From: a phage
DNA: 64,000 nt
Sequence record: PZ445439.1
Strand: one strand, 5' to 3'
Shown: one piece after another, positions 4,422 through 37,095 of the stretch
Position numbering within the stretch: the first letter of the stretch is position 1
Layout: the number at the start of each line of letters is the position of its first letter
Made by a program: the position numbers and the translations under genes
Notes under the pieces: generated by a model
Told to the model about the DNA's origin: nothing
The model's input: only the letters and a program-made list of their open reading frames with translations
Databases searched by the model: none

Positions 4422-4962
4422 ATAAAAAATCCAAACTAGGAGAATCGTCTACAACACTTTTCTTTTCAGCCCCCGGTGTTCTATAGGTTGATTCTTCGTA
4501 ATGCGTCATTTTATCGTAGATGTCTTGAATAAAAGTTTCATCTACTAACGCAACCATATCGTCGTCACGACTGTCATAGACATTGTGAACGAAGTAACTA
4601 TATTTCTTTGCAACTTCCTTACGTTCTTTTTTAATACGTTGGACGAATGCATTAAAACAAGCTTGAGTTATATACGCATGTGGGTTTTTATATTTCGTTT
4701 CATCAAAATTGTGAAGCCCCTTAATAGAAGCTTCTATACCATCTGCAATCATTTCTTGTTTCCAAGACTGGGTGTATCCTGAAAAGTTGAAACGTTTAGA
4801 TAAGCCTTCTGCAATAAGCATAATGGCTAATCCGATAGTATCATTCTGACGAACTACTTTATTTGGGTCTTTATTATTTGCTAATTCTGTTTTCCAATCA
4901 ATAATAGCTTGTAAAAGCTCTTTATTGTTTACGTAATTATATTTAGGCTTAGTTTCTGACAT
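4405..4962 (-). CDS. 55: late-transcription sigma factor gp55
   Basis: 185 aa from ATG at 4962 ([20 protein letters not shown]...), same length as T4 gp55. Confidence 0.85.
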
Positions 4963-5040
4963 TTTCACCTCTTAGCTCAATTCATAGATCTATTATATCA
5001 TAATATTTGAAGATCTATCTTAAAGCATAGAGAATATCAG

Positions 5041-5310
5041 TTATCTAAGTAAACAGTATGCTTGGAATACTTTCTCCATCATCTTTTTAAATTCATGAAT
5101 ATCTATATAATGACTAGTTAGATCAGCATGATATAAAAAGTCTAAAAACTTTTCATGTGTACTAACATATTCACTTTCATTTAATTCAGAAACATGGCTT
5201 TCCCAATATCCAACACCAGTCTTATTTGGGAAAAATGAAATTTTCATGTATTGGTCAACATAGAAAATGCCATAATTTTCAATAGTAATAGAAATATTAA
5301 TAAATTTCAT
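5041..5310 (-). CDS. hypothetical small protein
   Basis: 89 aa ORF in early orientation. Confidence 0.4.
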   Translation of the reverse strand: MKFINISITIENYGIFYVDQYMKISFFPNKTGVGYWESHVSELNESEYVSTHEKFLDFLYHADLTSHYIDIHEFKKMMEKVFQAYCLLR

Positions 5311-5522
5311 ACATTCATCAACTTAGCCGCTTCAAGAGCTGCATCTAGTGAATCAAATTGGTCAACGTATTCAATCAATTCGCCATAATTGGCATATAAC
5401 CACCATTGGCTAAATTCATACTCAAGGATGAATCCGTTTCCTTCAATTTGAGTTAAACCAATGCCATTTGTATTTACTTCATATCCAGCAAGACGCAAAT
5501 CGTTAATAAGAGCTTCGTTCAT
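5307..5522 (-). CDS. hypothetical small acidic protein
   Basis: 71 aa; stop/start overlap with neighbour. Confidence 0.4.
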   Translation of the reverse strand: MNEALINDLRLAGYEVNTNGIGLTQIEGNGFILEYEFSQWWLYANYGELIEYVDQFDSLDAALEAAKLMNV

Positions 5523-5524
5523 AA

Positions 5525-5851
5525 TTATACCTTAGTAATTTTCAGGTCTGCAAATTTTTTCTTGCGTTGATTTTTCATGCGACGAATAGTTTTATCGGAA
5601 ATTTCATGCTTTTGATAAGCTTTAGATTCTACACCAAAAGCTTTAACATCAAATTCTGACAAGATATATTGAACCAACAATTCACGGACAGTATTGCGTC
5701 CAATCTTCTGATCATTCTGTTTCATCGTCTGATGAAGCTCTTTTTCCCATTTATCCAAAATTTGAGGAGTTACAATATCGCCTTTTTCTAGCAAAGAAAC
5801 TACTTTATCATATGCGTAAGAATTGATGGCGTTTTTAATTTGAATAGTCAT
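5525..5851 (-). CDS. hypothetical protein
   Basis: 108 aa basic C-terminus. Confidence 0.45.
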   Translation of the reverse strand: MTIQIKNAINSYAYDKVVSLLEKGDIVTPQILDKWEKELHQTMKQNDQKIGRNTVRELLVQYILSEFDVKAFGVESKAYQKHEISDKTIRRMKNQRKKKFADLKITKV

Positions 5852-6742: not shown

Positions 6743-6772
6743 ATAATACCACGGTTTGAACTTGTTGTAAAC
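6743..6772 (-). promoter_or_regulatory. T4 early-type promoter (-35 GTTTACA, 17 nt, -10 TATTAT)
   Basis: minus strand TTTTTCACAAAGTTGTTTACA...GGTATTATTAAC upstream of ORF 6530..6712. Confidence 0.5.
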
Positions 6773-6852
6773 AACTTTGTGAAAAATATTTCAGGGAATG
6801 ATAAGAAAGGAACGATAGCTTAGAATGGTAATATACAGAATGTAAGAAAGAA

Positions 6853-6867
6853 AGGCCCAGAGGGCCC
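6853..6867 (-). terminator. hairpin GGCCC-(AGA)-GGGCC
   Basis: inverted repeat immediately 3' of nrdH-like ORF. Confidence 0.45.
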
Positions 6868-6870
6868 ATC

Positions 6871-7194
6871 TTAGTCTTCTATGATATCTCTATCATATCC
6901 AAGTGAAATGAGAGTTTCTTTGAAGTGTTTAATGTTCTTTTGCCTAGAATCATTAATGAAAATGACCGGATACCGAATATTAAGAGATGTGAATCCGGCG
7001 CGTTTGGCAAGAGATACAATCAGTGGACGATCATACTCAATCTTACCATTATTAGTAAGAACTTTATAGAAAGTAAAAGGAGCATTGAGCTCCTTTAGAA
7101 GTTTTGTAACTGATTGACATCCAGGACAACGACCTACTTCATCTGGAATTCCATAGACTTCAATCTTATTCTTTAAGTTCGAGTTTTGTTCCAC
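6871..7194 (-). CDS. nrdH: NrdH/glutaredoxin-like redoxin (start uncertain, possibly GTG near 7194)
   Basis: CPGC redox motif preceded by IEVYGIP beta-strand; N-terminal 40 aa of track ORF are low-complexity and overlap next gene. Confidence 0.5.
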   Translation of the reverse strand: MEQNSNLKNKIEVYGIPDEVGRCPGCQSVTKLLKELNAPFTFYKVLTNNGKIEYDRPLIVSLAKRAGFTSLNIRYPVIFINDSRQKNIKHFKETLISLGYDRDIIED

Positions 7195-31821: not shown

Positions 31822-32277
31822 TTAAAAGAGGCTGTTCATTATTCGGTAAAGTGAAGGACCCATCACATATTGCCACTGAGTACGAGGAATAAGAGCAAAA
31901 GCATCCATCTCTGGAATCATAACGCCATCTTTATTTTCAAAATAAGACTCGCAATGGCAATTTCTGAACATCTCATGCTCTACTGGAATCGTATAATAAA
32001 ATAGCTGTAAGTCTTTATTACTAGAATATTTAAATACACCTAGGTCTTCTAGAAGGTCTGGATTATAATTGCTAAAACCAGTCTCTTCTAAGCATTCTCT
32101 TCGTGCTGCATCTAATGCGCTTAAATCGGAATTTTCTACACGACCCTTTGGAATATCCCAACGATGTGCCATCATTCCAGGCTTACGAGAACCAGTAACC
32201 CGACCCATAAATAAATCTTTATCTTCTGTCATAAAGATAATACCAGCTGATAATGTTTTCATTTTAATTTCCTGCAT
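31822..32277 (-). CDS. nudE: Nudix hydrolase
   Basis: Nudix box GRVENSDLSALDAARRECLEETG; 151 aa (alternative start at 32262). Confidence 0.85.
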   Translation of the reverse strand: MQEIKMKTLSAGIIFMTEDKDLFMGRVTGSRKPGMMAHRWDIPKGRVENSDLSALDAARRECLEETGFSNYNPDLLEDLGVFKYSSNKDLQLFYYTIPVEHEMFRNCHCESYFENKDGVMIPEMDAFALIPRTQWQYVMGPSLYRIMNSLF

Positions 32278-32762
32278 TCAGTAATAAAGTTATTTAAATT
32301 TTGAGTATATTTCTTTTCATCAAAAATCTTTTGTTGTCTGCGTAAACGCCATGGCATTTCAATGAACACGCACCATATTCCTGATAATATTGCTGCAGTA
32401 AAAATATTAACAAATATAGTACAAAGAGCCCAATCTCCTATTCTGTCCATTGGATTTTTTCCAAAGAAGTAAAATACGAATGATGACACAGGAAGACTGA
32501 TAGTATACCACAGAAGCATATTCTTGTCTGTAAACCAATCAGCGTTCGTTAACTTAGCGCGACCATTTTGAATACACACGAATTTATCATCTGTTACAGT
32601 AGATGGCTTAACTGGTTGATATCCCATTCTAAACTCCCTAATTAGCAAATTTTTCATATCTTCGGAACAGCCACTCCAGTCAACTCTATCAACTGAAATG
32701 CCATCATCCCCATCATCTAAATCATACCAGCGAGTTTTTAAAATCATCTGATTTTCCTGCAA
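32259..32762 (-). CDS. membrane protein, C-terminal F-x-x-ECRK motif family
   Basis: hydrophobic helices; C-terminus NNFITECRKLK. Confidence 0.5.
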   Translation of the reverse strand: MQENQMILKTRWYDLDDGDDGISVDRVDWSGCSEDMKNLLIREFRMGYQPVKPSTVTDDKFVCIQNGRAKLTNADWFTDKNMLLWYTISLPVSSFVFYFFGKNPMDRIGDWALCTIFVNIFTAAILSGIWCVFIEMPWRLRRQQKIFDEKKYTQNLNNFITECRKLK

Positions 32763-33106
32763 TCACTCACAAACTCTTTCATTGATTCATTTTCAATATA
32801 AGACATGTAGCTGTTATATTCTTTTAATTGTATTTTGTAATCCTTTTTTCTTTGCCAATTTATTTTAAAATTATCATAATGAAAATATAACATGATACCA
32901 AAGAATGAAAATGATGAAATCGCTATAGTATAATGAAGTTCACTCCAAACTTCTATTATATTTACTGTGCCGTCGATATTTAAAATAAGACAGTCAATTA
33001 ACAATCCAATAAGACTACCCGCAAGAGCTGCAGCCAACGCCACAGCAAAAATTAAAAATGACTCAGGAAACGAATATTTGACTTTATTTAGTTTTGGCTT
33101 TTGCAC
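32744..33106 (-). CDS. membrane protein, same family
   Basis: two TM segments; C-terminus KEFVSDCRKIR. Confidence 0.5.
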   Translation of the reverse strand: MQKPKLNKVKYSFPESFLIFAVALAAALAGSLIGLLIDCLILNIDGTVNIIEVWSELHYTIAISSFSFFGIMLYFHYDNFKINWQRKKDYKIQLKEYNSYMSYIENESMKEFVSDCRKIR

Positions 33107-33501
33107 CGTGATTCCTTAACAAATTTCATAATTTCATCAAATTCATACGCAGCAAGTTTAAGCTGGTGTTCCTTTTTAATCTTTTTACACTGAGCTTTCC
33201 AATCGCGTATGCGTTTACGATAATGTCTTCCTTGATACCAGTATCCTACCCAATTTACAGGTACTAATAAAAATGGAACTATCATTGGAAGAATTAGTGT
33301 TGACGCAAATATTATATTAGATTCAATATCAGTCATAACATCTATAACTATTCCAACCCCCAGTAGAATTACAAATGATACAGCTATTACAGGACCTATT
33401 AATACATCAGTAGAAATTAGCTGGCGCTTTAATTCATACTTCAACGGTTTACTTGGAAGATACATTGATGGCTTTGACATATTCTCTACATTCCTTAACA
33501 A
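33088..33501 (-). CDS. membrane protein, same family
   Basis: two TM segments; C-terminus MKFVKESRCKSQN. Confidence 0.5.
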   Translation of the reverse strand: MLRNVENMSKPSMYLPSKPLKYELKRQLISTDVLIGPVIAVSFVILLGVGIVIDVMTDIESNIIFASTLILPMIVPFLLVPVNWVGYWYQGRHYRKRIRDWKAQCKKIKKEHQLKLAAYEFDEIMKFVKESRCKSQN

Positions 33502-34057
33502 ATTTTTCTAGTAATAAATCGCTTTCAAAATTAGGATTTTCCACGAATTTATCAAAAAGATCATCAACAACGGTTAAAATATTCTTTTTGCTAAGAATAC
33601 GTTTATTTTCATGCTTCGTTTCAGAATCAACTATAAGAGTAAAGAAATATTTCTTGCCACGAAATTTTACGGTAGTATCAATATAAAATAAATTTGACTT
33701 TTGTAAATTACGTTTAAACCATGCGTCACTCAAACTATAAATGCCAAGATAATCATAATCGTCATTTAAATAACAAACTGTCCATTCAGGAGAAATGAAA
33801 TCAGTAAATTCAACATCAAAATCACAGGTCAATGAATGAATTGATTCAATACTGTTAATAAGTATTCCAGGACGTATTAAAGACTTTTTACCTCTTGAAA
33901 ATCTTCCAGAAAGGCTTTCATCAGTTTCATATGAAGAACCCCAATAGTAATTACGTCCTTCTGCCATGCGTTTAAGAGCATTTAGTAATTGGTCTGGAAC
34001 ATCAACCTGTCTTTGGAACTCTTCAAACATTGAATTGAAATCACTTTGCATTTTCAT
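33449..34057 (-). CDS. soluble protein carrying related EKFVKECREYV motif
   Basis: 202 aa; no TM; motif shared with three downstream membrane proteins. Confidence 0.5.
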   Translation of the reverse strand: MKMQSDFNSMFEEFQRQVDVPDQLLNALKRMAEGRNYYWGSSYETDESLSGRFSRGKKSLIRPGILINSIESIHSLTCDFDVEFTDFISPEWTVCYLNDDYDYLGIYSLSDAWFKRNLQKSNLFYIDTTVKFRGKKYFFTLIVDSETKHENKRILSKKNILTVVDDLFDKFVENPNFESDLLLEKFVKECREYVKAINVSSK

Positions 34058-34078
34058 TCCTATTTACTCCAAGTAATA

Positions 34079-34092
34079 GGGGCCGAAGCCCC
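34079..34092 (-). terminator. hairpin GGGGC-UUCG-GCCCC
   Basis: inverted repeat GGGGCCGAAGCCCC 3' of 34099..34692. Confidence 0.5.
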
Positions 34093-34098
34093 TTATTA

Positions 34099-34692
34099 TC
34101 ATTTCAGAGAATTAATGTATTCCTGAACATCGGCAGAGGTAGTTTCAACCCCGGAAATATTACCATTAAAGGTTTCAACTCGAGCAAGGGTATCTTCAAT
34201 ATCAACCTTAGTCAGCGCTGCAATTTCAACTACATCATCGGCAGTACTAATTCCAAGGGCATTTGCTGCACGAGTTTCACGGATATATTCCAATTTAACT
34301 GCAAGTTCTTGGCGAGCATCATCTAACTCAACTACTTTCTTGGCGATTTCAATTCGCATTTCAGCATAACCGTCAGCCTTAGTAGTCAACTGCTCAGCTG
34401 TTCGACGATATAGTAAACCGAGTTTAGCATGCATTGTTACATCTTGACCTTCAGAAAGAAGCTTGCGAATTTCACGCTCTTTTGATTCGGCCTGCTTATT
34501 CTTTTCGACAATAAGTTCACGAATACGTTTTTCTTCATTAATAGATTTAACAGAAGCAGTTTTTAGGTCTTTAATTTTATCAAGTAGTTTTGCTGCTGCA
34601 GCAGTATACTGTTCTTCAACAGATAAATTTTTAGCCATAGCAGAACCAAGTTTAGTGCGAATAAACTCAACAATTTTCTTCAGTGTGTTCAT
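34099..34692 (-). CDS. long coiled-coil protein, PspA/IM30-like
   Basis: 197 aa almost entirely heptad-type helix; pattern resembles PspA family (low certainty). Confidence 0.4.
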
Positions 34693-34735: not shown

Positions 34736-34912
34736 TTATACTCCGGATAGTTTGTAAACTATTTTAACATCGCCTTTTGCTGCTTTATAACCTTCAGCCC
34801 AAGATATAACAGAGTTTTTATCTGAAGATTCAAATTCTGGCATTGGGCTTTCGCCAATGTTCACACAATATGTTTCTTCATTTTCGTCGAACCAAATAAT
34901 TAAAGTAGTCAT
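34736..34912 (-). CDS. hypothetical small protein (below ORF-track cut-off)
   Basis: 58 codons MTTLIIWFDENEETYCVNIGESPMPEF...; GGAGAAAT RBS. Confidence 0.35.
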   Translation of the reverse strand: MTTLIIWFDENEETYCVNIGESPMPEFESSDKNSVISWAEGYKAAKGDVKIVYKLSGV

Positions 34913-35273: not shown

Positions 35274-35296
35274 TAGTTGATAGTTGTATAGTACCA
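35274..35296 (-). repeat. 23-bp promoter-associated repeat (copy 3)
   Basis: identical to 17692..17714 and 19131..19153. Confidence 0.8.
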
Positions 35297-35317
35297 TGGA
35301 AGAACAGGGATGTAAAC
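35286..35317 (-). promoter_or_regulatory. T4 early-type promoter with UP element
   Basis: minus strand TTTTTTCACAAAACTGTTTACA...TACTATAC. Confidence 0.55.
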
Positions 35318-35485: not shown

Positions 35486-35959
35486 TTATTTGATTTGTTT
35501 AGCAGACCAAATGCGGTCTTTAATAATTTTTTGGATGTCTTCAACATACTCAAGAGAGTGAACATGCGGGTTATCTTTGAAACTATAAGCACGAGCTAAC
35601 TTTTGGCCTTCAGTTTTGATTACTAAAAGCTCTTTAAGGATAGCTTCATATTTGGAGATAATTCCTTTAACAATATTTTTCTCTTGTGCTACTTTAGGAT
35701 CTGCTTTAGGAGCAGGTTTACCTGAAGCCTTTGCAAAAGCAGCTCCAGTAGCAACTAAACTTTTCCAAGCCATACTAACTGCATTTCCCGTAAATCCTTC
35801 TGCTTTCATATCGCGAGCAAATTGGAATCGCGATTCATCAGAAGCATCTTTATAGGAATATTTACCCGCGGCAATGGCAGCTTTTGCGACAGCTTGAATT
35901 TCAGTGCTAGATGCTTCATTTAACACCGCTTCATTTAAAAATTGAGCATATGATTTCAT
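35486..35959 (-). CDS. capsid-targeted internal protein-like protein (CTS-bearing), 157 aa
   Basis: N-terminus MKSYAQFLNE-AVLNE resembling MKTYQEFIAE CTS; late promoter upstream; flanked by terminator repeats. Confidence 0.6.
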   Translation of the reverse strand: MKSYAQFLNEAVLNEASSTEIQAVAKAAIAAGKYSYKDASDESRFQFARDMKAEGFTGNAVSMAWKSLVATGAAFAKASGKPAPKADPKVAQEKNIVKGIISKYEAILKELLVIKTEGQKLARAYSFKDNPHVHSLEYVEDIQKIIKDRIWSAKQIK

Positions 35960-35995
35960 CTTATTTCCTGTTTTAATTCGTGGTTTTAATATACT

Positions 35996-36003
35996 TATTT
36001 ATA
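35996..36003 (-). promoter_or_regulatory. late promoter TATAAATA
   Basis: minus strand GTATAAATAAG about 35 nt upstream of 35959 start. Confidence 0.45.
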
Positions 36004-36005
36004 CT

Positions 36006-36036
36006 AAAAAGCCCCAACCTTTCGGCTGGGGCTAAG
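36006..36036 (-). repeat. 31-bp direct repeat containing terminator hairpin (copy B)
   Basis: aaaaagccccaacctttcggctggggctaag. Confidence 0.85.
36010..36033 (-). terminator. rho-independent terminator of tRNA/stable-RNA operon
   Basis: perfect 7-bp stem AGCCCCA/UGGGGCU + inner CC/GG, followed by TTTTT. Confidence 0.65.
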
Positions 36037-36039
36037 CCT

Positions 36040-36349
36040 TGCGGCAACCTTGTCGGGGTTCCACCTGCTAAGGCAAGTGTTTGTACGAAACGCCGGGATT
36101 CGAACCCGGTTACCAAGCAGTTGACGCTACTCAATATTTTTAAAAGGCCATATCTCGACCATATCCGAACGTTCCGTCAAAAACGCTACTCGGCTTATGG
36201 CAAAGATATTTCCTCGAATCGATAATTCGGTGCGCCGTTTCTGCTGTGATATAAGGGGACATTAACAGATCGTAAAGATTTGTTAATGTCAGTCCTTAAA
36301 CAGGGAACATCAGTCCGACGACTTACCGGTAGCGACCCGGCTTCTTGTC
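36040..36349 (-). ncRNA. stable small RNA region (T4 species 1/2, rnaC/rnaD-like) with tRNA-like T-arm
   Basis: no ORF; canonical T-arm CCGGG-TTCGAAT-CCCGG and paired ends between tRNA-Arg and terminator; boundaries approximate. Confidence 0.45.
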
Positions 36350-36426
<77 letters not shown>

Positions 36427-36429
36427 TAG

Positions 36430-37095
36430 TTAAAATTTCATTTTTCGACCTTTAAACCATCCTTCTGGAATTGGGTCAGTTTTCTTAATACGTTTAGAAA
36501 CTTTTTCATCTAATGAATGAATCCACATCATACCAAATTGGGAATTCTTTTCACCTTTTTGGTGATTATTTTTAGCATGAATTTCTTTCATTTTATTAAT
36601 AGTTTCAGGAGTATGGGTCTTACCCAAGAAAGATTTAGTATTTAAAAATTTCTCTCTATACTTAGGATTATCCCAAAGCTGTTTAAACCTTTCTGAACCC
36701 ATTTTACGATATTTTTCTTTAAGGTCTGGGTCGTTCTCAAATCTGGTTTTAAAAGCAGCAGCCCCTTTTAAGGAAGCTTCTTTCTTTTTATCCAAATATT
36801 CTTTAGTGTTTAAATGGTCCCAACCACCTTCACCACCTAATTTCAAATTATAAACATCAGGGCGCTTTAAAAACTCTTCAGTCAAAATATTCTTTTCTGA
36901 CTCAAACATAGAGGTTTTATCGTCAAAGAACTCTAATATTTCTTTAGAGAAATTTTCTATACCATACTTGTCTTGGGCTCTTTTTAATAATTTACCAGAA
37001 CCCATATATCCATCATCTAAATTTTCGGTAGAATGAGCGCCTATATAGATTTTATTATTAATTTTATTTGTTATTTTATAAGTGTAATGGAACAT
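36430..37095 (-). CDS. segB: GIY-YIG homing endonuclease SegB
   Basis: 221 aa; YTYKITNKINNKIYIGAHS GIY-YIG module; located inside tRNA cluster as in T4. Confidence 0.8.
   Translation of the reverse strand: MFHYTYKITNKINNKIYIGAHSTENLDDGYMGSGKLLKRAQDKYGIENFSKEILEFFDDKTSMFESEKNILTEEFLKRPDVYNLKLGGEGGWDHLNTKEYLDKKKEASLKGAAAFKTRFENDPDLKEKYRKMGSERFKQLWDNPKYREKFLNTKSFLGKTHTPETINKMKEIHAKNNHQKGEKNSQFGMMWIHSLDEKVSKRIKKTDPIPEGWFKGRKMKF

Follow-up and report, generated by a model that had tools for sequence, protein, structure and literature searches.

Results

The window analysed here, a stretch of 64,000 nt (PZ445439.1), comes from a Tequatrovirus and contains five minus-strand ORFs that are orthologues of T4 e.2, e.3, e.4, e.5, and e.6, with a DNA identity over these genes of 95.6% to RB14 and 94% to T4. 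They form a module that lies in the order e.6, e.5, e.4, e.3, e.2 upstream of nudE. The e.6 gene (34099..34692) encodes a 197-aa protein matching phrog_1203 and is followed on the same strand by e.5 (33449..34051, or 34057), whose product is a soluble protein of 200 aa, and by three membrane protein genes: e.4 (33088..33480; 130 aa, with a basic tail predicted to be cytoplasmic), e.3 (32744..33106; 120 aa), and e.2 (32259..32747; 162 aa, with an acidic N-terminal domain and a basic tail). The downstream limit of the module is nudE (31822..32262, minus strand), a Nudix hydrolase gene (Pfam NUDIX, E=1e-13) that is translationally coupled to e.2, and the lysozyme gene e adjoins the region. Start positions for e.2–e.6 were taken from the RB14 and T4 annotation; while the five ORFs listed in the initial annotation of this DNA all exist, the extents given there were those of maximal ORFs, some of which the RB14/T4 starts shorten. 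The e.2 reading frame is intact in the window and frameshifted in reference T4.

A sigma-70-like promoter (TTTACA-17-TACTAT, with TG in front; 35288..35316, minus strand) is found upstream of e.8, close to the position of about 35300 at which an early promoter had been proposed, and corresponds to the -35/-10 elements annotated upstream of msp1 in T4 record L13089. The early transcript through the module probably starts at this site. The 43-nt gap upstream of e.6 offers no convincing sigma-70 or MotA-type site for a promoter of its own, the TTTACA and TATAAT that it contains being only 12 nt apart. The gap between e.6 and e.5 holds a GGGGC-UUCG-GCCCC hairpin (34078..34093, minus strand) with no U-tract and a fold z-score of only -1.6, which L13089 annotates as a putative stem_loop and which is possibly an RNA-stability or processing element.

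The e.6 protein of the window, 100% identical to T4 e.6 (msp3), had been described as nearly all-helical and as resembling PspA/IM30. Structure prediction agrees with the former, giving an almost entirely helical protein; the latter holds for the family profile and for Foldseek but not for Pfam, in which PF04012 does not match window e.6 even at E<=10, and an NCBIfam scan of the same protein gave no match. Searched against PDB sequences, a profile of 39 family members finds Vipp1 with E=7.4e-5 in a colinear alignment (1-146 to 1-147), and more Vipp1/PspA chains at 2e-4 to 2.6e-3. The HMMER bias term amounts to 16 bits on this 25-bit Vipp1 match; in controls, real Vipp1 scores 28.3 bits, its reversed sequence -0.7, and 500 shuffles at most 8.0, while circularly permuted sequences retain long colinear blocks and are therefore uninformative. 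Two members of the family, P0068 (39.0 bits) and P0066 (35.1 bits), score above the PF04012 gathering score of 33.9, and both match the e.6 profile over their full length (E=6e-20 and E=1e-21, respectively); one member also matches the NCBIfam LiaH model (E=0.005). Single-sequence PDB searches with e.6 and with P0068 gave no matches, E. coli PspA reaches only E=1.5 against the family profile, and when hhalign aligns the e.6 family with this one PspA sequence the probability is only 26%, for 57 columns.

The structural comparisons point the same way as the profile. Foldseek with e.6 against the PDB places Vipp1/PspA entries at all of ranks 1–8, with archaeal CdvB next, and against BFVD it returns family members first, then a Snf7 protein and a phage protein annotated as PspA/IM30. 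The resemblance to CdvB/Snf7 is structural only (Foldseek E=0.001 to 0.1), with no Snf7 (PF03357) match for e.6 in Pfam scans. The AF2 model has helices at residues 2-22, 25-80, and 86-145, for which the predicted layout is an N-terminal amphipathic helix followed by the long α1/α2-3 hairpin of the ESCRT-III fold, and the N-terminal helix has a hydrophobic moment of 0.45, compared with 0.42 in PspA and 0.57 in Vipp1. Judged from these comparisons, e.6 is a diverged homologue of PspA/IM30/Vipp1, within the ESCRT-III superfamily.

The products of the other four genes match little that is known. Close homologues of e.5 carry a precomputed Pfam assignment, PF26876; our own Pfam scan of e.2–e.5 and of their homologues in other phages gave no match, including to PspB, PspC, PspF, and LiaI/LiaF, and NCBIfam models and PADLOC defence-system models gave none to e.2–e.6. 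Broader searches with e.5 reached few distant relatives, its identity to homologues from other genera is 16-21%, with F184 and C188 as the only invariant columns, and its AF2 model (pLDDT 35) is unusable. The view that e.4, e.3, and e.2 are three two-helix membrane proteins is borne out by hydropathy for e.2 and e.4, which have two hydrophobic segments each, whereas e.3 has only one strong segment and a second, weaker one of about 1.1 on the Kyte-Doolittle scale. The e.3 and e.4 groups align with hhalign over their full length including the tails (90% probability, P=2e-7), a probability that falls to 27-43% when the 20-residue tails are removed; they are also connected by a transitive BLAST chain (e.3, AnYang, PM2, e.4) and have in common an N-terminal K-P-x-K-P pattern. 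Orthologues of e.4 are present in KpV477 and PM2. By sequence, e.3 and e.4 may thus be paralogues; e.2 shows no significant match to either, and homology among the bodies of e.2, e.3, and e.4, beyond their tails, is weakly supported.

What these four proteins have in common is a C-terminal motif, F-[IV]-x-x-C-R or more broadly hydrophobic-[IV]-x-x-[C/A]-R-[K/R], that is absent from e.6. It reads F-V-K-E-C-R in e.5 (33485..33502), F-V-K-E-S-R-C, a variant, in e.4 (33103..33123), F-V-S-D-C-R in e.3 (32756..32773), and F-I-T-E-C-R in e.2 (32271..32288), all on the minus strand and in the very tails that the initial annotation had listed (FVKECREYV, FVKESRCKSQN, FVSDCRKIR, and FITECRKLK, respectively); the motif survives alignment and is the sole invariant feature of e.5-like proteins. 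Its count in the six-frame translation of the window (4 instances of F[IV]xxCR versus 1.5 +/- 1.1 in shuffles) is weak evidence alone. The complete T4 genome (165,660 bp) has four instances of the strict motif, three of which are the tails of e.2, e.3, and e.5, and the motif is found in no other ORF tail of that genome. At 40 IMG/VR loci, which are not independent because they are related by descent, the motif is present in 85 of 405 ORF tails downstream of e.6 and in 0 of 522 upstream. The tails are basic and, by the positive-inside rule, the motif would therefore lie in the cytoplasm.

The same arrangement recurs in distant phages. The gene directly after e.6 carries the motif in 38 of the 40 IMG/VR metagenomic loci, the remaining two having FVxYC, and the motif extends to Muldoonvirus and to Ackermannviridae, the latter having the form [IV]-[IV]-x-x-A-R with Ala in place of Cys, so that a cysteine-specific role is not general. 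The e.6 family is present in phages of Aeromonas and Erwinia as well. An e.5-type gene always directly follows e.6, and the order of e.6 and motif protein is kept in 40/40 IMG/VR loci and in Ackermannviridae although the bodies of the proteins have diverged beyond recognition. Sequence comparison thus indicates that distant phage lineages have e.6, then an e.5-type gene and between one and three genes for small membrane proteins of the hairpin type, and this synteny across Straboviridae, Muldoonvirus, and Ackermannviridae strengthens the original proposal of a membrane-directed module.

The DNA encoding the tails has a second aspect. Neighbouring genes overlap by 4 to 32 nt, and every tail in the window overlaps the next start, with AAGGAA (encoding K-E) or GCAGGAAA (encoding C-R-K) 5-10 nt before it. 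In the e.5 tail, AAGGAA within the motif is the likely Shine-Dalgarno site for e.4; in the e.4 tail, the overlap is with AAGGAA, the Shine-Dalgarno site of e.3, and with the GTG at which e.3 starts; and in the tails of e.3 and e.2, GCAGGAAA and ATGA provide the Shine-Dalgarno site and start of e.2 and of nudE, respectively. A 16-nt identical repeat, AAATTTGTTAAGGAAT, is common to the e.5 and e.4 tails. Among 82 distinct motif instances, a Shine-Dalgarno-like site and a start lie in or just after the tail in 64. From their sequences, the genes of the module are tightly coupled in translation, with motif codons often supplying the ribosome-binding site of the next gene. This dual role of the motif DNA, as peptide and as ribosome-binding/start region, had been missed by the first reading of the window.

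Discussion

The reading that we favor, to which we give an even chance, is that these genes form a conserved, Psp-like module with which the phage maintains the membrane, a function that we infer. The e.6 protein would be a membrane-binding polymer and the shared tail of e.5, e.4, e.3, and e.2 a common cytoplasmic docking helix, through which the membrane proteins e.4, e.3, and e.2 would draw e.6 to the inner membrane or nucleate it there, and e.5 would hold or regulate it in the cytoplasm, in parallel with PspB/PspC and PspF for PspA, or LiaI for LiaH. T4 shuts off host transcription early. Once host transcription is silenced, the host's own Psp response would no longer be inducible, and the module may keep the inner membrane of the infected cell tight and energised after this shutoff; it may also blunt membrane-depolarising abortive-infection systems or superinfection damage. 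A T4 knockdown screen on a laboratory host (CRISPRi-ART, 2025) revealed no defect for the e.2–e.6 genes, which fits an accessory role but also counts against the favored reading, as do the weak match to E. coli PspA and the lack of matches of the partners to PspB, PspC, or LiaI models. A bolder version, which we regard as tentative and somewhat doubtful, is that T4-type and ViI-type phages have a self-contained ESCRT-III/PspA remodelling system in which dedicated adaptors, marked by a C-terminal docking helix (F-I-x-x-C-R) not described before, recruit the e.6 polymer to the inner membrane. Such a system could seal or reshape the membrane after injection, upon superinfection, or against pore-forming abortive-infection effectors, and would replace the host Psp response silenced by the phage.

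Several features of the locus could be read otherwise. The overlap of every window tail with the next start, the AAGGAA or GCAGGAAA that precedes it, the 64 of 82 instances with such signals, the repeat common to the e.5 and e.4 tails, and the possible paralogy of e.3 and e.4 would all suit a motif with no function in the protein, left by tandem duplication and by the ribosome-binding/start region of the next gene being read in the upstream frame. We consider this very improbable. Among the 82 instances, F, I/V, C, and R are encoded by the full set of their synonymous codons, which argues for selection on the peptide, the Shine-Dalgarno site shifts among motif positions from tail to tail, the motif in some proteins sits 24-25 residues before the stop codon and away from the next start, and the e.5-like proteins, otherwise so divergent, have no other part that is invariant. 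The codon data thus largely refute an origin of the motif from Shine-Dalgarno sites only, and on sequence grounds we conclude that the motif is real and under selection at the peptide level, making this stretch of DNA a clear case of one sequence that carries a peptide under selection and, at the same time, the signals for starting translation of the gene that follows.

If the peptide is selected, it may nevertheless have little to do with e.6. The tail-bearing proteins could form a membrane complex of their own or bind a host target through the shared helix—for example to exclude superinfecting phages, to time lysis, or to inhibit a membrane protein of the host—with e.6 an independent neighbour in the operon, which we think unlikely, yet the most credible of the alternatives. 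The motif is indeed found in the four partners and not in e.6, the docking of e.6 onto the tails is something that we infer, the annotation of Muldoon guesses at a holin or antiholin function for the two-TM proteins, and gene e is next door. However, the T4 holin, antiholins, and exclusion proteins (t, rI, rIII, imm, sp) are encoded elsewhere in the genome, and the persistence of the e.6-to-motif-protein order despite body divergence argues for a shared function, the usual meaning of such linkage. Less probable still is that e.6 is a PspA mimic aimed at the host Psp system, binding PspF or co-assembling with PspA, with the host envelope-stress response being reset or blocked. E. coli PspA contacts PspF and the membrane through its N-terminal helix and hairpin, the very parts that the e.6 homology spans. 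There is also a precedent in a truncated host PspA, a gain-of-function allele that alters the envelope and phage adsorption (PMC12234005). A mimic would leave the conserved membrane partners unexplained, however, and the e.6 family extends to phages of hosts such as Aeromonas and Erwinia. With host transcription shut off early by T4, control of a host activator would matter little.

No lytic phage has been studied better than T4, yet e.2–e.6 are still without an assigned function: T4 annotation holds no experimentally defined role for them, and the 2025 CRISPRi-ART tables list them as unknown. Our literature search on T4 e.6 and neighbouring e genes, including a 2025 HIDEN-SEQ preprint, yielded only these tables and Gendre et al. 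2022 (PMC9409062), and the set of motif-bearing partners appears to be undescribed before in a literature searched by gene names, the motif not being keyword-searchable. A PspA system owned by the phage, if true, would explain how the host membrane stays energised until lysis despite the shutdown of host gene expression, would be a candidate for countering defences that depolarise the membrane, and would represent a viral branch of the PspA/Vipp1/ESCRT-III superfamily with new adaptors and a new short recruitment motif. Point mutants and peptide binding assays make the motif itself directly accessible to experiment.

The closest phage parallel is Gp_125 of Salmonella Kuttervirus SeF3a, which belongs to the same PHROG family as e.6 (phrog_1203), and for which PspA homology was suggested from a pdb70 comparison and an anti-Abi role proposed (PMC9409062); that study concerned a single gene in one Kuttervirus, leaving aside T4 e.6, the conserved genes that follow it, and their tail motif. 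The Psp system of E. coli/Yersinia resembles the phage module in combining a protein of the PspA family, built of an amphipathic N-terminal helix and a long hairpin, with a soluble partner and with small inner-membrane proteins encoded alongside, whose cytoplasmic C-terminal helices could bind it. The analogy is in layout only, however: e.2–e.5 match no PspB, PspC, or PspF model, the phage module is without sigma-54 regulation, e.6 is shorter than PspA (197 versus 222 aa) and matches that of E. coli only at the E=1.5 given above, and the phage partners have one common tail motif, with none such in Psp partners. Vipp1/IM30 of cyanobacteria and chloroplasts (PDB 7O3W, 6ZVR, 8QFV) provides the best profile and Foldseek match to e.6, colinear from Met1 to about residue 146, although identity is about 15%, and e.6, known here from sequence and model, is without the Vipp1-specific C-terminal extension. 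In Bacillus subtilis, the PspA homologue LiaH is anchored by LiaI, a small membrane protein encoded beside it. The phage locus likewise has a PspA-type protein next to small membrane protein genes, but e.2, e.3, and e.4 have no sequence relationship to LiaI, and there is no LiaFSR-type regulation. With respect to ESCRT-III, there is no Vps4-like ATPase near the phage module, and the motif is carried by the partners instead of the ESCRT-III-like protein; the likeness, which is one of analogy only, lies in the superfamily fold of e.6 (CdvB and Snf7 in Foldseek) and in a short terminal helix that would serve for recruitment in the manner of MIM-MIT interactions.

Results

The five minus-strand genes at issue, orthologues of T4 e.6, e.5, e.4, e.3 and e.2, lie ahead of nudE and lysozyme gene e in this Tequatrovirus. 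The 2.4-kb stretch that they form shares 97.9% identity with Escherichia phage JoYop, against 95.6% with RB14 and 94% with T4. The genes delineated in the initial annotation are real, but its coordinates were those of maximal ORFs, and the starts annotated in RB14 and T4 shorten e.2 (32259..32747), e.4 (33088..33480) and e.5 (33449..34051). In the old T4 GenBank record, these genes appear as msp3 to msp7, accompanied by annotated promoters and a stem-loop, and no function is given. In reference T4 (GT7 KJ477686, 67451..67938, and the old L13089), e.2 is split by a frameshift into a 102-aa N-terminal part and a separate frame in which the second hydrophobic segment lies together with the FITECRKLK tail, a split that PHROGs 35263 and 35580 mirror; e.2 in the window is intact (162 aa), as in RB14. 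At 34736..34912, an unrelated 58-aa ORF (phrog_5461, similar to RB69ORF145c) stands where T4 has e.7 (111 aa) and an annotated promoter before e.6, T4 homology picking up again 16 nt ahead of the e.6 start.

The product of e.6 (34099..34692, minus strand; 197 aa) had been likened to PspA/IM30, a resemblance that its distant relatives bear out. It matches phrog_1203 (E=8e-88), and its homologues, of ~195-205 aa, occur in >1,100 phage records (46 clusters at 50% identity); all those whose source was examined come from phages or phage-like contigs. The AF2 model (mean pLDDT 74.5, about 90 in the hairpin) begins with a helix (2-22) and a long hairpin (25-80 and 86-145), after which come three short helices at the C-terminus. 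A Pfam scan of window e.6 gave no PspA_IM30 match and nothing near threshold, and a profile of close relatives found nothing significant in the PDB. A broad profile of 39 members, reaching down to 18% identity, matched Synechocystis Vipp1 (E=7.4e-5; 1-146 colinear with 1-147) and then six more Vipp1/PspA chains (E between 2e-4 and 2.6e-3); a single prefoldin chain (8.7e-4) ranked between these, and E. coli PspA reached only E=1.5. Because the HMMER bias term of the Vipp1 match was large, reversed and shuffled controls were run: real Vipp1 scored 28.3 bits, reversed Vipp1 -0.7 and the best of 500 shuffles 8.0. Pfam PspA_IM30 was matched by five of the 39 members, and two distant homologues that match the e.6 profile over their full length, P0068 (39.0 bits; Kuttervirus type, on a contig also encoding UvsX and gp41 homologues) and P0066 (35.1 bits), exceed its gathering score of 33.9. 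As judged by these profile comparisons, the e.6 family is homologous to PspA. Many GenBank/UniRef records call e.6 a 'host specificity protein' and one labels a homologue 'tail completion protein'; we found neither name backed by experiment, and both look like propagated automatic annotations.

PHROGs assigns each module protein to a separate family, four of them of 'unknown function' and that of e.2 (phrog_2203) labelled just 'membrane protein'. The Pfam scan of window proteins gave no family for e.2, e.3 and e.4; for e.5, close homologues of which carry the precomputed family PF26876, nothing came near threshold. The e.5 structure model failed (pLDDT 35). With a Pfam set lacking PF26876, neither PspB, PspC, LiaI nor any other family matched the accessory proteins or their homologues elsewhere, and PADLOC models matched none of the accessory proteins. 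Hydropathy and charge suggest that both ends of e.4 and e.3 (32744..33106), and the e.2 tail, are cytoplasmic. The e.3 and e.4 proteins share an N-terminal K-P-x-K-P pattern and are connected via intermediates in other phages and by hhalign; as the tail supplies most of the hhalign signal, paralogy of their bodies is at most plausible.

The four related C-terminal tails first noticed (FITECRKLK, FVSDCRKIR, FVKESRCKSQN and FVKECREYV) are present as described, and their DNA also holds the translation signals of the following gene. AAGGAA (K-E codons) sits before the e.4 and e.3 starts, GCAGGAAA (C-R-K codons) and then ATGA mark the e.2 and nudE starts, and module genes, which are translationally coupled, overlap by 4 to 32 nt. 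A 16-nt repeat, AAATTTGTTAAGGAAT, identical at 33490..33505 and 33111..33126 (minus strand) and also found in T4, encodes K-F-V-K-E in both the e.5 and e.4 tails and might permit unequal recombination, with duplication or loss of genes of the array.

Downstream of e.6, the motif F-[IV]-x-x-C-R recurs in AnYang, PM2, KpV477, Aeromonas 65.2, phiR1-RT, RB43 and Muldoon, as the tail of e.5-like proteins, two-TM proteins and small soluble proteins, and takes the form [IV]-[IV]-x-x-A-R in Ackermannviridae. Among e.5-like proteins 16-21% identical, its F and C are the only invariant columns. Across the complete T4 genome there are four copies of the strict motif, three of them the tails of e.2, e.3 and e.5. 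It is carried by the ORF directly after e.6 in 38 of 40 IMG/VR loci (FVxYC in the other two), and by 85/405 ORF tails downstream of e.6 versus 0/522 upstream, counts that convey no probability because the loci are related by descent. Two motif-bearing two-TM proteins of Yersinia phage phiR1-RT (4401..4718 and 4688..5062) are unannotated or truncated in GenBank, which for one annotates just a 49-aa protein. In other phages, the module is closely followed by small acidic proteins (L003 5820..6264; L004 5907..6451 and 6765..6950; phiR1-RT 5059..5800) that share a second tail, W-x-SSS-x-C or SSC then stop, of which a search of the window found no copy.

Elsewhere in the window, five ORFs (minus-strand starts 29876, 30216, 30540, 31300 and 39944) open with MK(T/M)Y(Q/S)EF(I/L)(A/S)E, a start that resembles the N-terminus targeting T4 internal proteins to the capsid; T4 has ipII and ipIII annotated at the equivalent position. 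A sixth ORF (35486..35959) opens with MKSYAQFLNEAVLNEA. A GIY-YIG homing-endonuclease-like ORF (36430..37095, minus strand; MFHYTYKITNK...) lies at the T4 segB position, adjoining a GC-richer stretch (~35970..36400) whose T4/RB14 counterpart holds tRNA and small RNA genes.

Discussion

In this analysis, e.6 is followed by two to four proteins with a common tail that, across the genomes compared, is conserved at the peptide level, in a gene order kept across three phage groups. This confirms the initial observation of tail-motif proteins beside a PspA-like protein and supports its reading as a membrane-directed module. The PspA link has a precedent; Gendre et al. 2022 (PMC9409062) noted, by pdb70 comparison, PspA homology for a Kuttervirus phrog_1203 member and suggested an anti-Abi function for it. 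We found no paper tying T4 e.6 to PspA, and in the literature found on these genes the partner set and the motif, itself not keyword-searchable, are undescribed. As far as our search reached, the conserved module with its common tail is new. A CRISPRi-ART screen of T4 lists e.2 to e.6 as unknown, and their knockdown left fitness on the laboratory host unimpaired, which fits an accessory, condition-dependent role.

The dual use of the tail DNA meant that the motif as a mere ribosome-binding site had to be considered. Of 82 distinct instances, 64 do contain an SD-like site plus the start codon of the following gene, so that the DNA often serves both purposes. A ribosome-binding site alone is ruled out by the use of all synonymous codons across these 82 instances (F TTT 52 / TTC 28; C TGT 44 / TGC 38; R six codons), by positions as far as 24-25 residues before the stop codon and by wide recurrence. 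The same codon data largely exclude a by-product of duplication and coupling. Other rival readings are that the tails would serve a complex independent of e.6, or that e.6 would act on host Psp regulators.

The reading that we favor is that the shared tail would be a common docking helix through which the membrane proteins bring e.6 to the inner membrane, with e.5 holding or regulating e.6. Such a module may preserve membrane integrity and proton-motive force while the phage has blocked the cell's own Psp induction. The partner scheme proposed for e.6 would thereby parallel both PspB/PspC/PspF of the Psp system and LiaI.
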